NCBI GenBank assembly: GCA_012728915.1
Contig: JAAYEC010000075.1
Span: forward strand, 82-64,081
DNA length: 64,000 nt
Source of the DNA: Deltaproteobacteria bacterium
GTDB taxonomy: Bacteria > Desulfobacterota > Syntrophia > Syntrophales > UBA2192
Direction of reading: 5' to 3'
Shown here: positions 1,889 to 6,399 of the stretch, piece by piece
Numbering within the stretch: the stretch's first letter is position 1
Layout: every line of letters begins with the position of its first letter
Translations under genes and position numbers: made by a program
The notes under the pieces: model-generated
What the model was told of the DNA's origin: nothing
Databases searched by the model: none
What the model saw: the letters and a program-made list of their open reading frames with translations, nothing else

Positions 1889-3262
1889 TCAGTGCGCCGC
1901 CGGGGCCTGCGGGGGCTCCAGGGTGGAGGGGTCGGGCCCCCGGGCCAGCACGCGCCCCGTCAGGGCGACAAACGCCGCCGTGAGCAGGCCGGCGACCACG
2001 AGGTACCCGGCAAGGGACGCGGCGACGGTCCCCGCGGGCAGCGGGGTGGCGGCCTCGCTCGTCCGCACGAGGCCGTAGACGAGCCAGGGCTGGCGGCCCA
2101 CCTCGCGGGTGACCCAGCCGCCCTCCACGGCGGCCCAGGCGAGCGGCCCCGCCGCCATCCAGGCGCGGAGAAGCCATGTTTCGCCGGGAAGCCGATCGGC
2201 AACAAGCGCCCCCTTCTTCCAGCGCCACCCCGTCCAGAGCGCCAAGCCCAGGAACGCGAAGCCGGCGAAGACCATGACCCGGAAGGGGTAGAAGGTCATG
2301 AGGATGGGGGGGTGCAGGTCCTTCGGGAAGTCCTTGAGCCCCTTCACCTCGCCCGTCGGCGAGTGGGTCAGCAGGAGACTCAGCGCGTAGGGAACCTCCA
2401 CGGCCCAGAGATTTCTCTGGTTCGCCTCGTCGGGCCAGGCCGCGATGATCCATGAGGCCCCCTGCCCCTCGGGGTTCGTCTCCCAGTGCGCCTCCATGGC
2501 GGCGAGTTTCGTGGGCTGCAGGTTCGCCACCTCGCGGCCGTTCTCGTCCCCGATCCAGACCTGCAGGGGCGCGATCACGAGGGAGGCGATCAGGGCCGCC
2601 TGGAAGGACCGGGCAAAGAACGCGGTGTGGCGCCCCTTCAGGACGTACCAGGCGCTGATCCCGCCGACGACGAGGAAGCTCGTCTGAAGGCAGGCGACGT
2701 ACATGTGGGCCGTGCTGAACACCATGTCGGGGTTGAAGATCGCCTCCCGGAAGTCCGTCACGATGATGCGTCCGCCGTCCAGGGTGACCCCGGCGGGGGA
2801 CTGCATCCAGGAGTTGGCCACCATGATCCAGAACACCGAGAGGGCCGATCCCAGCACGACCATGCAGGTGGAGAAGAAGTGGAGCTTCGGGGGAACCCGG
2901 TTCCAGCCGAAGACCATGACGCCCAGGAACCCGGCCTCGAGCATGAAGGCCGCCAGGGTCTCCGTGCCGAGGATCTCTCCGAAGAAGGCGCTCTTGGCCG
3001 CGAAGGGAGCCCAGTTGTTCCCGAAGGCGAACTCGAGGGGAAGGCCCGTGACGACGCCGATGCCGAAGTTCAGCAGCAGCAGCCGGCTCCAGAAACGGGC
3101 ATGGCCGTACCAGGCGGGGTCCTTCGTCTTGAGCCAGAGGCCCTCCATGACCGCGATGAACAGGGCAGTCCCGACGGTCAGCACCGAAAAGGAGATGTGG
3201 ACCATGGCCATGGCGGCGAGCTGAAGGCGGGAAAGCATCACGGAATCGAAGAGCGCGTCCAT
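1889..3262 (-). CDS. cydA: Cytochrome bd ubiquinol oxidase subunit I (short Q-loop type)
   Basis: H19-equivalent (MVHISF), LEFAFGNNW, ANSWMQSP, HMYVA, QPTKLAAMEA, FRVMV, EGGWVTREVGRQPW. Confidence 0.96.
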   Translation of the reverse strand: MDALFDSVMLSRLQLAAMAMVHISFSVLTVGTALFIAVMEGLWLKTKDPAWYGHARFWSRLLLLNFGIGVVTGLPLEFAFGNNWAPFAAKSAFFGEILGTETLAAFMLEAGFLGVMVFGWNRVPPKLHFFSTCMVVLGSALSVFWIMVANSWMQSPAGVTLDGGRIIVTDFREAIFNPDMVFSTAHMYVACLQTSFLVVGGISAWYVLKGRHTAFFARSFQAALIASLVIAPLQVWIGDENGREVANLQPTKLAAMEAHWETNPEGQGASWIIAAWPDEANQRNLWAVEVPYALSLLLTHSPTGEVKGLKDFPKDLHPPILMTFYPFRVMVFAGFAFLGLALWTGWRWKKGALVADRLPGETWLLRAWMAAGPLAWAAVEGGWVTREVGRQPWLVYGLVRTSEAATPLPAGTVAASLAGYLVVAGLLTAAFVALTGRVLARGPDPSTLEPPQAPAAH

Positions 3263-3310
3263 CGGACCTCACCCATCATGGAAATCCCGGCATGAGGCCG
3301 GGCGGACATA

Positions 3311-3411
3311 AGAAGAAGGCAAGAAGGTGAGAGGGTGAGAAGGTTGGATAAGACCGCAATCGTCGCAGAACCTGACCCTCTTACCCTCTCACCTTCTCAC
3401 CCTCTTCTTCT
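3311..3411. repeat. Inverted pair of 8-mer tandem arrays (AGARGGTG-like) forming a long hairpin upstream of cydA
   Basis: agaaggca-agaaggtg-agagggtg-agaaggtt (3314-3345) against accctctt-accctctc-accttctc-accctctt (3375-3406). Confidence 0.75.
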
Positions 3412-3417
3412 GTTGGG

Positions 3418-3687
3418 TCACTTGATCCGCGTAACGAGAAGCGTGGCCGTGTCGAACCCCTCCACGGACAGCAGGCGGACCTCGTAGAGAGCGCCGTCGG
3501 CGCACTCGAACTGGACGAACTCACCGAGGTTGAGACGTTCCACCTCGAGGTTCCTGACGCCCACGGCCCCGATGCGGATGTGGACGAAGCTGTGGGCCAC
3601 GCTGACGATGCTCACGAGCAGGGCCCCCCCGGCGGCAACTGCCGTGGAGTACTGCTTCGTCGTGATCGTTTCACTCGGGTAGGTCAT
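3418..3687 (-). CDS. Small hypothetical protein (89 aa, beta-strand-rich)
   Basis: ORF MTYPSETITT...LLVTRIK with GGAG upstream and genome-typical codon usage; no recognisable motif. Confidence 0.65.
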   Translation of the reverse strand: MTYPSETITTKQYSTAVAAGGALLVSIVSVAHSFVHIRIGAVGVRNLEVERLNLGEFVQFECADGALYEVRLLSVEGFDTATLLVTRIK

Positions 3688-3811
3688 GGCACGTTCTCCG
3701 AAATCCTTTGCGGGGTCAAGCACCTCCGGGTGCTGAAAAAAAGGGGCCCCCTGTCCCCTGTCGAATCCTAGGCCGGCCCCGCGAACGGGGCCCCGCGGGG
3801 CGCGCTGCCCA

Positions 3812-3839
3812 TTCTAGCAAATAAGCGCCTGATTGCCAG
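3812..3839 (-). promoter_or_regulatory. Putative sigma70 extended -10 promoter (TGcTAGAAT) for the hypothetical gene and possibly cydAB
   Basis: Minus strand reads ctggcaatcaggcgcttatttgcTAGAAT. Confidence 0.4.
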
Positions 3840-3930
3840 TTTTTTTTGCGCGGCGAGGGGCAATCGAGGCCCCGGACACCGGTTGATAGCTCAGGGGGCT
3901 GCCGGGGCAAGAAAAACGGTGGACGGGCTA

Positions 3931-3959
3931 TTGCTTTTCCCCGTCGCGGACATTATATT
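3931..3959 (+). promoter_or_regulatory. Sigma70-type promoter TTGCTT-N17-TATATT
   Basis: -35 at 3931-3936, -10 at 3954-3959, exact 17-nt spacer; no credible + strand CDS downstream. Confidence 0.65.
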
Positions 3960-3964
3960 AGGTG

Positions 3965-4231
3965 CAAAAGTGGCATGCCGGTTTCGGTATCGCTCTTCCT
4001 CATCTGCCGCAGCAGCTGCTTCTCGCACGGACCGAAGAAATCTCGCCCCAGCCCTACCGAAGCCAGCGGGCATCCAGCCTCCCCCTCCTTGGCTGTTTGC
4101 CCTGCCAGGGGCTTTTCCCTCCTCCTTTGGCCCCTCGGACGACGGTAGGGCAGGGCCTGAAACCGCCCGCCCGGACACAGCTGGCAATACGGGCGCACCA
4201 AAAAAAGCAGGGCACAGGGCCCTGCTTTTTT
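3965..4231 (+). ncRNA. Candidate structured small RNA with two hairpins exposing C/U-rich anti-Shine-Dalgarno loops
   Basis: Bounded by a promoter and an intrinsic terminator. Stems 4051-4059/4143-4151, 4068-4079/4091-4102 and 4107-4112/4130-4135. Loops UCCCCCUCCUU and UUUUCCCUCCUCCUUUG. Confidence 0.55.
4200..4231. terminator. Bidirectional intrinsic terminator
   Basis: AAAAAAA-GCAGGGC-acagg-GCCCTGC-TTTTTT between the sRNA candidate and the convergent PilZ gene. Confidence 0.85.
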
Positions 4232-4255
4232 CATATGGGAAAGGAGGATTTGGAT

Positions 4256-4627
4256 TCAGTTCATCGCCTCACGGAAGGGGGTGATCAGGTATCCCGTATC
4301 GAACCCGATGGCCATCCCCGCCGGACCGGACCGGATGACGGTCCCGTTTACCTTGATGAGCCCTCTCGTGTTGTCGCCGGGTGCGCTGACGTTGCGGACG
4401 GGCAGCAGGATGTCCATCTTGACCTTGGTGCCCGCGGCAAGCGCCGTTTTTGTGGGAAAATAGGCTCCGCCCGCACAGATGTCCTTCGTCAGGAGTTCGA
4501 GGAGGGAGGCCGCATCCGGGGAGGACAAGACCTCGATCTTGGCCGGCACCTGGAGTTCGAACCGCTCCAGTCTCCTGCGCTCGTACACCAGATCGTAGCT
4601 GTCCGCTATACGGGTTACTTTCCTCAT
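4256..4627 (-). CDS. Stand-alone PilZ domain protein (c-di-GMP receptor)
   Basis: ERRRLERF (RxxxR) and TKDICAGGA (D/NxSxxG-like) motifs. Confidence 0.85.
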   Translation of the reverse strand: MRKVTRIADSYDLVYERRRLERFELQVPAKIEVLSSPDAASLLELLTKDICAGGAYFPTKTALAAGTKVKMDILLPVRNVSAPGDNTRGLIKVNGTVIRSGPAGMAIGFDTGYLITPFREAMN

Positions 4628-4775
4628 GGCACCGTCTTCCTTTCCTTGCCCTCGCCGACCCTGCCCGCGGTTGTCATCCGGTGATCCTGCGATGCCCTTC
4701 ACCCCGCCGCCTCGCCCGGACCGGGGGAGTGAGGATCCTCCCGCGGACGGCGGAGTCAGGCTACCCCGTATTCTA

Positions 4776-4791
4776 TTCAGAATTCGTGCCA
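4776..4791 (-). promoter_or_regulatory. Possible sigma54 (-24/-12) promoter of the PilZ gene
   Basis: Minus strand TGGCACG-AATT-CTGAA: perfect -24 element, -12 reads GA instead of GC. Confidence 0.45.
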
Positions 4792-4875
4792 ACTCGGGAA
4801 AGTTTTAGGGCGGGGGGAAGAGGGTTGCGTACCCCGCACCGAGGGACCGGGAATCCCGATCCTGCGGCGGACGGC

Positions 4876-6399
4876 CTACCTCGGCTTCGCGTCGAGCACC
4901 TCGCGCACTTTCGACAGCATGTCCTTGAGCTGGTAGGGCTTGCTCACAAACCCGACGGGGTGGGGCTTGAAGGCCTCGCGGACCTGCTCCTCCGCCGAGG
5001 CACCCGTCGAGATGATGACCTTGATCTCCGGGTTGATCCTCAGGAGTTCCTGAAAGCACTTCTGCCCGCCCATGCCGGGCATGATGAGGTCGAGGATCAC
5101 CAGGTCGATGCGGTCCTTCTCCCTGCGGTAGATCTCGATGGCCTTCTCTCCCCCGTCGGCCAGGATGGTCTCGTAGCCGTACTGGCGAAGCAGGTCCTGG
5201 CCGATGTCGAGGACGGTCTTCTCGTCGTCGACCAGCAGGATCCTCTCCCGGCCGCGGGGCGTGTCGGCCGGCGCCTTCGCCTCGGCGCCCTTCAGGGCGC
5301 CGTCGTCCTTCAGGACGGGGAAATAGATGCGGAAGGTCGTCCCGCCGCCGGGGCGGCTGTCGACCTGGATGTAGCCGTTGTGGTTCTGGACGATGCCGTA
5401 GACGATGGCGAGCCCGAGCCCCGTTCCCTTTCCCGCCTCCTTCGTGGTGTAGAAGGGCTCGAAGAGATGCTGCAGGGTTTCCTTGTCCATCCCCTGGCCC
5501 GTGTCGGACACGGTCAGGAGGATGTACTCGCCGGGGTTGGCCCCGAGCATGGAGGTCGTGTAGCCCCGGTCGAGGTATACGTTTTCCGTCTGGAAGGTGA
5601 GGATGCCCCCTTCGGCCATGGCGTCGCGGGCATTCACGCCGAGGTTCATGAGGATCTGCTCTAGCTGGGCCGAGTCGGCGTTGACGACCTTGAGGTTCTC
5701 GGAGAGCCTGAGATCGATCGTGATCATCCGCGGGATCGTCCGCTGGAGGATCTTGCAGACCTGCATGACCTCGTGGTTGAGATCGAGGGGCTTGAGCTTG
5801 CTCTCCATCTTGCGGCTGAAGATCAGGAGCTGCTTGGTCAACTCGCTGGCCTTCAGGGTGGAGCTCTGGATGACCTCGAGCTTGCCGTAGTCGGGGTCGT
5901 TCGAGTCCTTGCGCATCAGCAGCAGCTGCGTGTATCCCGAGATGGCCTGCAGTAGGTTGTTGAAGTCGTGTGCGATGCCGCCGGCCAGGGTGCCGATGGC
6001 TTCCATCTTCTGGGCATGCAGGAGCTGGTTCTCGAGCTTCTTCTTCTGCTCCTCGGCCTGCTTGCGCTCGCGGATCTCGCGCTGGAGCTCCTCGTTGGCG
6101 CGGCTCAGCTCGGCCGTACGGATCTGGACTCTCTCTTCCAGCTCGTCGTGGGCGTGCTGCAGGGCTTCCTCGGCCTCCCGGCGCTGGTTGATGAGGAACT
6201 GGGTCATCATGCCGTAGGTGAAGATGAGGACCACGACCAGGAGGCGCGTCCAGAACTGGTCCGTCACCATGGAGTCGAAGATCCAGTAGATGAGGGCCAT
6301 CGCCACGGCGATGATCAGGAGCCCGTTCTGCTCGATCTGGTTGCGAAGGGTCAAGTTCCTGCGGATGTCCATCCTCATGCCGAGACTGCCTATGCTCAT
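4876..6399 (-). CDS. Membrane-anchored hybrid sensor histidine kinase (2 TM, HisKA, HATPase_c, REC; CckA-like)
   Basis: AGGIAHDFNNLL H-box, NLGVNARDAM, EPFYTTK..GKGTGLGL, C-terminal receiver ILLVDDE...LDLIMP. Start codon uncertain (6399/6378/6372). Confidence 0.93.
   Translation of the reverse strand: MSIGSLGMRMDIRRNLTLRNQIEQNGLLIIAVAMALIYWIFDSMVTDQFWTRLLVVVLIFTYGMMTQFLINQRREAEEALQHAHDELEERVQIRTAELSRANEELQREIRERKQAEEQKKKLENQLLHAQKMEAIGTLAGGIAHDFNNLLQAISGYTQLLLMRKDSNDPDYGKLEVIQSSTLKASELTKQLLIFSRKMESKLKPLDLNHEVMQVCKILQRTIPRMITIDLRLSENLKVVNADSAQLEQILMNLGVNARDAMAEGGILTFQTENVYLDRGYTTSMLGANPGEYILLTVSDTGQGMDKETLQHLFEPFYTTKEAGKGTGLGLAIVYGIVQNHNGYIQVDSRPGGGTTFRIYFPVLKDDGALKGAEAKAPADTPRGRERILLVDDEKTVLDIGQDLLRQYGYETILADGGEKAIEIYRREKDRIDLVILDLIMPGMGGQKCFQELLRINPEIKVIISTGASAEEQVREAFKPHPVGFVSKPYQLKDMLSKVREVLDAKPR

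Follow-up and report, generated by a model that had tools for sequence, protein, structure and literature searches.

Two minus-strand genes in the window, by which we mean the whole 64,000-nt stretch of Syntrophales DNA that was analysed, leave a gap of 530 nt between them, and this gap houses a structured, non-coding RNA gene on the plus strand (3966-4231; Table 1). A sequence-only reading of this DNA had proposed a promoter of the form TTGCTT-N17-TATATT. Its coordinates were verified, and across homologues its position is invariant: the two promoter blocks, TTGCTTTT and TATATT, are fixed in place in 23 same-genus and 3 sister-genus copies, with a spacer of variable sequence between them. Within the first block, TTGC is constant in 23/23 same-genus sequences and TTG in 3/3 sister-genus copies of the sigma-70 type; single-position variants are TTGCGT (L013) and TTGATT (L031). 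Members from other families have TTGACT-type promoters, likewise on the plus strand. The intrinsic terminator named in the same reading was also found in place. It is composed of GCAGGGC-acagg-GCCCUGC followed by U6 (4207-4231) and is kept in the genus and in the sigma-70-type sister-genus copies. The terminator loop varies among homologues and its position does not; at the innermost position 18 sequences have a CG pair and 4 have UA, and the window's copy has an unpaired C-U. A consensus scan for promoters and terminators listed neither of these two signals, the promoter being absent because its -35 hexamer, with only three of six matches to TTGACA, falls under the threshold of the tool. In the genus, and likewise in three sister-genus copies, the RNA is followed by the same end of the PilZ gene. 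With conserved promoter blocks and a terminator, a convergent next gene and no plus-strand gene downstream, the RNA is an independent transcription unit, its start site being predicted from the promoter. The claim that the region has no credible coding sequence held as well: among 23 close relatives no ORF is conserved over it on either strand, the starts, frames, positions and lengths all differing, and the homologue alignment contains 1-nt indels within the core, in its loops.

Table 1. Features of the RNA gene and its convergent neighbour, in window coordinates
Feature	Position	Strand	Remarks
Predicted sRNA, ~265-266 nt	3966..4231	+	5′ end deduced from the -10 hexamer; 3′ end is the terminator U-run
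-35-like hexamer TTGCTT, inside block TTGCTTTT	3931..3936	+	3/6 match to TTGACA
-10 hexamer TATATT	3954..3959	+	17 nt past the -35; invariant in 26 sequences (23 same-genus, 3 sister-genus)
Small 5′ hairpin (CCGG-UUUC-GGUA region), genus-specific	3977..3988	+	RNAalifold, 23 sequences; pair types AU/GU, CG/UG, CG/UG, GC
Conserved core: closing stem and two hairpins, 118 nt	4040..4157	+	R1 134.7 bits, against 19.4 on the opposite strand
Closing stem, 5′ arm, GCCC-ca-GCCCUACCG	4045..4059	+	Pairs with 4143-4156; sequence nearly invariant
Hairpin 1	4068..4102	+	Loop 4080-4090, UCCCCCUCCUU
Hairpin 2	4108..4135	+	Loop 4113-4129, UUUUCCCUCCUCCUUUG
Closing stem, 3′ arm, CGGUAGGGC-a-GGGC	4143..4156	+	Pairs with 4045-4059
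3′ hairpin, genus level only, weakly supported	4169..4194	+	RNAalifold, 5 pairs: 4 invariant, one GU/GC
Intrinsic terminator, bidirectional (A-run, GC stem, U-run)	4201..4231	+	Common to the convergent PilZ gene; 13-pair hairpin (fold and RNAalifold)
PilZ-domain gene, convergent neighbour, syntenic, outside the RNA	4256..4627	-	Pfam PilZ 23.7 bits, cut-off 22.5

Several elements of the flanks lie outside the RNA. On the minus strand, an 89-codon ORF (89-101 codons) at 3418-3687, without a Pfam family, precedes the gene for cytochrome bd subunit I; RNA contigs from one sequencing run (X2) cover it at a depth of 150-186. A promoter-like CTGGCA-N17-TAGAAT for the upstream minus-strand gene is found at 3839-3811, and this block is conserved across the genus. 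Between the small ORF and cydA, the minus strand can form a long hairpin (3296-3420; about 34 pairs, -67 kcal/mol) with arms of GGUGAGAR-type 8-mers. Matches of 27-39 nt to these arms, at 87-97% identity, are scattered over more than 30 of the genome's contigs, which marks the hairpin as a dispersed palindromic repeat, REP- or MITE-like; the repeat also accounts for the loose contig ends clustered at 3313-3349 in three RNA runs. On the other side, just past the terminator, the plus strand reads AAAGGAGGA at 4238-4255 and the minus strand UCCUCCUUU. The latter forms part of the PilZ mRNA at its 3′ end, right before the shared terminator, and is kept in most, not all, of the same-genus genomes. 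It could be an anti-Shine-Dalgarno RNA derived from the 3′ UTR, or mere chance.

Fold, covariation and coding strand

A long closing stem around two hairpins with loops complementary to the Shine-Dalgarno sequence had been described from the letters alone. The coordinates of these elements were verified, and the plus strand of 3960-4231, folded by itself, adopts the same architecture at -121.2 kcal/mol (z = -3.73; 0/200 shuffles as good); the fold of the minus strand reaches z = -2.38. Both loops contain CCUCCUU, which is unpaired in the minimum-free-energy and consensus folds alike. CCUCCUU is the core of the anti-Shine-Dalgarno tail of 16S rRNA, by which the general sequence is meant rather than one read from the 16S gene of this genome. 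The loops are strongly conserved: CCCUCCUU of loop 1 is kept in 29/29 copies from the window's own family, and CCCUCCU of loop 2 in 31/36 sequences, among them 5/7 distant ones. The exceptions in loop 2 are L059 and L060, which have C-rich variants, and three same-genus copies that read CCUUCCU. Conservation extends past the Shine-Dalgarno complement to CCCCC in loop 1 and to UUUUCCC and UUUG in loop 2.

The core is the sole part of the RNA that is conserved beyond the genus. Within the genus, a full-length alignment of 23 sequences additionally contains the small 5′ hairpin, the 3′ hairpin, which is missing from the sister-genus copies, and a pyrimidine-rich variable linker. Two further pairings that the sequence-only reading had considered possible were not borne out by the relatives. 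The first, CGGUUUC (3979-3985) with GAAACCG (4159-4165), can form here and is not conserved, the 3′ partner reading UGAAUAAG, UGAAUCAG or AAAAACAG in close relatives; CGGUUUC lies instead within the local conserved hairpin at 3977-3988. The second, CAGCUG (4013-4018) with 4178-4183, is not conserved either, and 4013-4018 falls in a variable stretch. A short junction helix leading from the closing stem to the hairpins was sought by eye and dropped, since its registers differ between clades.

Covariation was assessed in 36 distinct sequences, in an alignment that was fitted to the covariance model and therefore leans toward the structure. In this alignment paired cells make up 97.8%, and both sides change in 15 of the 28 pairs, including all nine pairs of hairpin 1 and three of the six in hairpin 2. 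None of 500 shuffled controls reached any of the five measures, and controls in which the structure was slid were 33-57% paired. When RNAalifold was applied to an independent MAFFT alignment, it likewise returned 28 pairs, 8 of them with a compensatory change. The closing stem contributes UA>CG and AU>GC changes, which occur in two sister-genus copies. The helices contain 49 G-U/U-G cells against 3 A-C/C-A cells and thus fit the plus strand only. All promoter-like elements also lie on the plus strand, and the sigma-54-type element of the sister-genus paralogues described below, being on the same strand, is a further indication of it.

Distribution, paralogues and expression

Homologues were sought by DNA search, by covariance model and by pattern. 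In the DNA search, 15 of the 17 other genomes of the genus match 3700-4260 (E <= 2.6e-46), and the remaining two, which are 64% and 88% complete, gave noise only. All four genomes of the sister genus match 4038-4156 only, that is, the closing stem and the two hairpins. A covariance model (R1) built from 23 cores finds a single copy in the window's genome (134.7 bits) and copies in 20/22 genomes of the family, the two misses again being 64% and 88% complete. Across the order, R1 finds copies in 17/151 genomes, with 11/11 in the window's own family and 5/10 in a second one; it detects none in the 22 families that remain. The exact pattern of the closing stem occurs at 23 places in 185,579 species genomes, 22 of which R1 confirms; the titles of the 23 records name Syntrophales, Syntrophaceae, Syntrophobacterales or delta-proteobacterial MAGs. 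In metagenomes, the pattern GCCCYRCCG..CCCTCCT..CGGYRGGGC is found in at least 118 stretches. R1 recognises 16 of the 80 examined, 14 of them scoring 98-137 bits and the other two 33-34, with the next best at 22.1. An occurrence in soil and marine contigs was rejected: the remaining pattern matches are the chance product of a permissive pattern and are not recognised by R1. A second model that includes distant members (R2) gives weak matches of 22-29 bits (L206-L211) in five further families; two of these, L209 and L211, give matches on either strand and resemble palindromic repeats. The RNA family was found only in the Syntrophales.

Three loci from other families of the order (L060, L205 and L206) specify RNAs of about 90-107 nt with the same plan of a stem, a UUCCCC loop and a CCCCCCUCCUUU loop. 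This type is without most of the closing stem, and in L060 a U8 tract directly 3′ of the closing stem lets the stem double as a terminator.

The sequence-only reading had not recognised the family, and it matches no Rfam family: a covariance search of Rfam 15 at gathering score returned no match in the whole window or in 10 homologous loci. In E-value mode, 3650-4350 gave terminator-driven matches only, the best being SorX at 25.2 bits, where the gathering score is 46.6. In the literature searched, which included few subscription journals, no sRNA described for Syntrophales was found.

The sister genus carries a second class of copies. In four of them (L026-L029) the sigma-70 blocks are replaced, at the same place about 70 nt upstream of the core, by cGGCACGgtaa[C/G]TGCAt, in which GG and GC are spaced as in the -24/-12 consensus of sigma-54 promoters. 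Both types of copy are present in three of the four sister-genus genomes, and the fourth (G019) has the sigma-54 type only. The sigma-54-type copies have no clear terminator, only GUUUCU after the closing stem. A gene for sigma-54 is present in the window's genome. The -24/-12-type element makes it probable that at least this sister-genus copy responds to signals by way of an enhancer-binding protein. The one such copy whose surroundings were examined, L027, has no sigma-54 activator gene beside it; it is flanked by a deoxyhypusine-synthase-like gene and an MFS transporter (names read from translations). In the window's genus, the RNA would be driven by the sigma-70-type promoter, and the second copy of the sister genus would, at least probably, be under sigma-54 control.

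Traces of expression were looked for in public sequencing runs. Half or more of the sampled words occur in each of 20 runs from 12 studies; 13 of these runs are labelled as RNA. The RNA evidence consists of assembled contigs, which give neither strand nor ends and carry one depth figure per contig; parts of 3000-5200 without RNA contigs were given no weight. In run X2, contig depth is 293-634 over the bins from 3962 to 4183, against 20-27 before and 36-58 after them, and adaptor-like loose ends lie at 3978 and 4183. Run X1 assembled only 3891-4259 of 2.2 kb, two small pieces aside. A contig of X5 covers 3947-4194, and two of X4 cover 3641-4101 and 4072-4227. The contigs of X1 (3891-4259) and X5 (3947-4194) and the first of X4 (3641-4101) start upstream of the predicted start at about 3966. 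Since the contigs are unstranded, they are a hint, not proof, that a discrete, abundant RNA is expressed.

Possible function and targets

We favour, with moderate confidence, the view that this RNA of about 265 nt is a stand-alone, trans-acting and chaperone-independent repressor, restricted to the Syntrophales, that acts through predicted pairing of its anti-Shine-Dalgarno loops. The loops would pair directly with the G-rich Shine-Dalgarno regions of several mRNAs, and such pairing would exclude the 30S subunit and so repress translation. Because the pairing between loop and ribosome-binding site is GC-rich, a chaperone would be unnecessary. The sequence-only reading had pointed to csrA and hfq as genes to look for, and neither was found: the Hfq, ProQ and CsrA families gave no match in the window's genome, whose completeness is 100% as judged by marker genes (for CsrA, the search with PF02599 detected the control genomes).

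Potential binding sites are numerous. At a duplex energy of -18 kcal/mol or below, loop 1 pairs with 213 and loop 2 with 225 of 2044 crude gene starts, numbers that are biased because the starts came from a GC3 filter and their choice favoured those bearing a Shine-Dalgarno sequence. Target prediction by exact complementarity and duplex energy returned many Shine-Dalgarno sites and no specific regulon; predicted pairing to ribosome-binding sites is abundant but unspecific. The top match is to a 319-aa secreted protein (13 nt), and a dockerin match was sub-threshold only. One candidate target is the carbon-starvation transporter gene cstA (Pfam CstA, 432 bits), judged by the complementarity of its ribosome-binding site. 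The site reads GAAGGAGGGGGAUU-AUG in 11/11 close orthologues of the genus, with 11 bases complementary to loop 1, and the sister-genus orthologues (3/3) have GAAAGGAGGAGA, which fits loop 2. Since the whole region upstream of cstA is conserved in the genus, the match could reflect relatedness, or merely a strong Shine-Dalgarno sequence.

The closing stem introduces a complication. Its sequence is nearly invariant across two families, which pure loop pairing does not explain and which hints at a protein or some other partner. The RNA might therefore be a decoy or scaffold, its invariant closing stem and C/U-rich loops being bound by an RNA-binding protein that it titrates or delivers. The stem (GCCCUACCG/CGGUAGGGC with GCCC/GGGC) is indeed almost invariant while hairpin 1 covaries in 9/9 pairs, contig depth hints at a high abundance, and mimicry of the 16S tail could attract tail-binding proteins. 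We nevertheless regard a decoy as unlikely. No candidate protein is at hand, Hfq, ProQ and CsrA not having been found in the genome, and among the unpaired bases it is precisely the Shine-Dalgarno complement that is conserved best. The neighbours of the copies also differ (PilZ here, and elsewhere an MFS transporter with a deoxyhypusine-synthase-like gene, or cheD, names again read from translations), and hence there is no linked partner gene.

The abundance of predicted sites raises the possibility that the RNA is a global competitor, imitating the 16S 3′ tail in abundance to damp translation of every mRNA with a strong Shine-Dalgarno sequence, without a defined regulon. CCUCCUU in both loops, the more than 200 of 2044 crude gene starts at or below -18 kcal/mol, the high contig depth in small metatranscriptomes and the failure to find a specificity-conferring chaperone are all compatible with such a role. 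However, the conserved loop extensions (CCCCC, UUUUCCC and UUUG) suggest selective pairing, and known C-rich sRNAs possess defined regulons, as far as the accessible text of PMC6486639 describes them; we therefore give the competitor a slim chance. A more far-reaching version, which we put forward as a decidedly long shot, is that an abundant, order-specific 16S rRNA 3′-tail mimic, displaying two CCUCCUU copies on a rigid, sequence-invariant stem, would be a global governor of translation initiation in slow-growing syntrophs without Hfq, ProQ and CsrA. It might compete with 30S subunits for strong Shine-Dalgarno sites or engage a factor that binds the anti-Shine-Dalgarno tail, and the sigma-54-driven paralogue would tune the dose.

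It is very improbable that the locus is a cis-acting element of the minus strand, either the leader of the small ORF/cydA operon or the 3′ UTR of PilZ, with GGA-rich loops as a CsrA-type sponge or site. Both flanking genes do lie on that strand, the terminator is bidirectional, the minus strand folds below its own shuffles (z = -2.38), and the X4 contig spans 3641-4101. Against this stand the 49 G-U and 3 A-C cells, the absence of a detectable csrA and the unrelated contexts of the other copies. Moreover, the promoter-like site of the minus-strand gene at 3839-3811 lies downstream of the RNA on that strand, and the terminator, read as 4231-4201, would halt PilZ transcripts short of the core. 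A minus-strand CsrA sponge had been the alternative offered by the sequence-only reading, and it falls with csrA, the pair counts and the exclusively plus-strand promoter-like elements. A relationship to CsrB/RsmY-type sponges was rejected on the same grounds, the loops being GGA-rich on the minus strand only. To the encoding of a small protein we give virtually no credence: GC-rich as it is, the region offers ORFs of 40-87 codons in either orientation, but their starts, frames and lengths are not conserved among the 23 close relatives, the core tolerates 1-nt indels, and substitutions are compensatory for pairing.

An anti-Shine-Dalgarno repressor acting in trans is thus the reading that we carry forward. 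The Syntrophales, relatives of Syntrophus and Smithella, are key degraders of fatty acids and hydrocarbons in anaerobic digesters and sediments, and they are mostly uncultured. Covariation, strand evidence and metatranscriptome traces together provide this order with a well-supported family of putative riboregulators. If the predicted pairing is correct, the use of C-rich loops against Shine-Dalgarno sequences would have arisen once more, in a lineage in which none of Hfq, ProQ and CsrA was detected. The models R1 and R2, which describe the core at 4040-4157, can be used to annotate MAGs and metatranscriptomes, and the RNA's candidate connection with carbon-starvation transport (cstA) and with sigma-54 signalling is open to testing.

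Comparison with known regulatory RNAs

As an RNA gene the locus is solid, and the family is new, belonging to none of the RNAs compared here; its function we infer, and the kind of regulator that we propose, a C-rich loop directed at the Shine-Dalgarno sequence, is already known. Two comparisons concern single features. SorX (RF02784), the sole sub-threshold Rfam match (25.2 against 46.6 bits; minus strand, 4200-4277), was rejected as a relative: the match lies far below threshold and spans the shared terminator and the CCUCCUU stretch in the PilZ 3′ region (UCCUCCUUU), not the core. Pxr of Myxococcus is a sigma-54-dependent sRNA. One class of sister-genus paralogues resembles it in having a -24/-12-type element, whereas the sequences are unrelated and the window's copy has sigma-70-type hexamers.

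Among the sRNAs of Firmicutes, those of the RsaE/RoxS and RNAIII type pair with ribosome-binding sites through unpaired C-rich motifs, CCCC or UCCC. The Syntrophales RNA differs from them in having an extended copy of the anti-Shine-Dalgarno sequence, is unrelated in sequence and fold, and gave no Rfam match.

In design there is a parallel with the cuckoo RNAs (the alphaproteobacterial RSs0680/CcsR, alpha-r14 and NfeR1 type). According to the accessible part of PMC4615179, where RNAIII is mentioned alongside them, cuckoo RNAs are built of 2-4 adjacent hairpins, each with CCUCCUCCC in its loop; compensatory changes alter their stems and leave the loop motif intact, there are paralogous copies, and the family occurs in Rhodobacterales/Rhizobiales. 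The Syntrophales RNA shares with this description several hairpins, C-rich loops of anti-Shine-Dalgarno type, compensatory stems and paralogues. In contrast to the adjacent cuckoo hairpins of that account, its two hairpins lie inside a long closing stem of invariant sequence. The loops differ from the motif CCUCCUCCC as given there, loop 1 reading CCCCCUCCUU and loop 2 CCCUCCUCCUUU (CCUCCUCCU, 8/9). The hosts are Syntrophales, not Alphaproteobacteria, and no Rfam model matched.

Pairing to the ribosome-binding site that blocks initiation, the step proposed here, is the mechanism given for the cuckoo family in PMC4615179 and for 6C RNA in PMC6486639, both in the portions accessible. In the latter source, 6C RNA of a GC-rich organism binds several mRNAs directly through C-rich loops, independently of Hfq and ProQ. 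The Syntrophales RNA is unlike the actinobacterial 6C RNA in phylum, in architecture and in length (about 265 nt), and it gave no Rfam match. As far as that text describes 6C, the two have in common their C-rich loops and a setting free of Hfq and ProQ, since the window's genome is likewise without a detectable copy of either.
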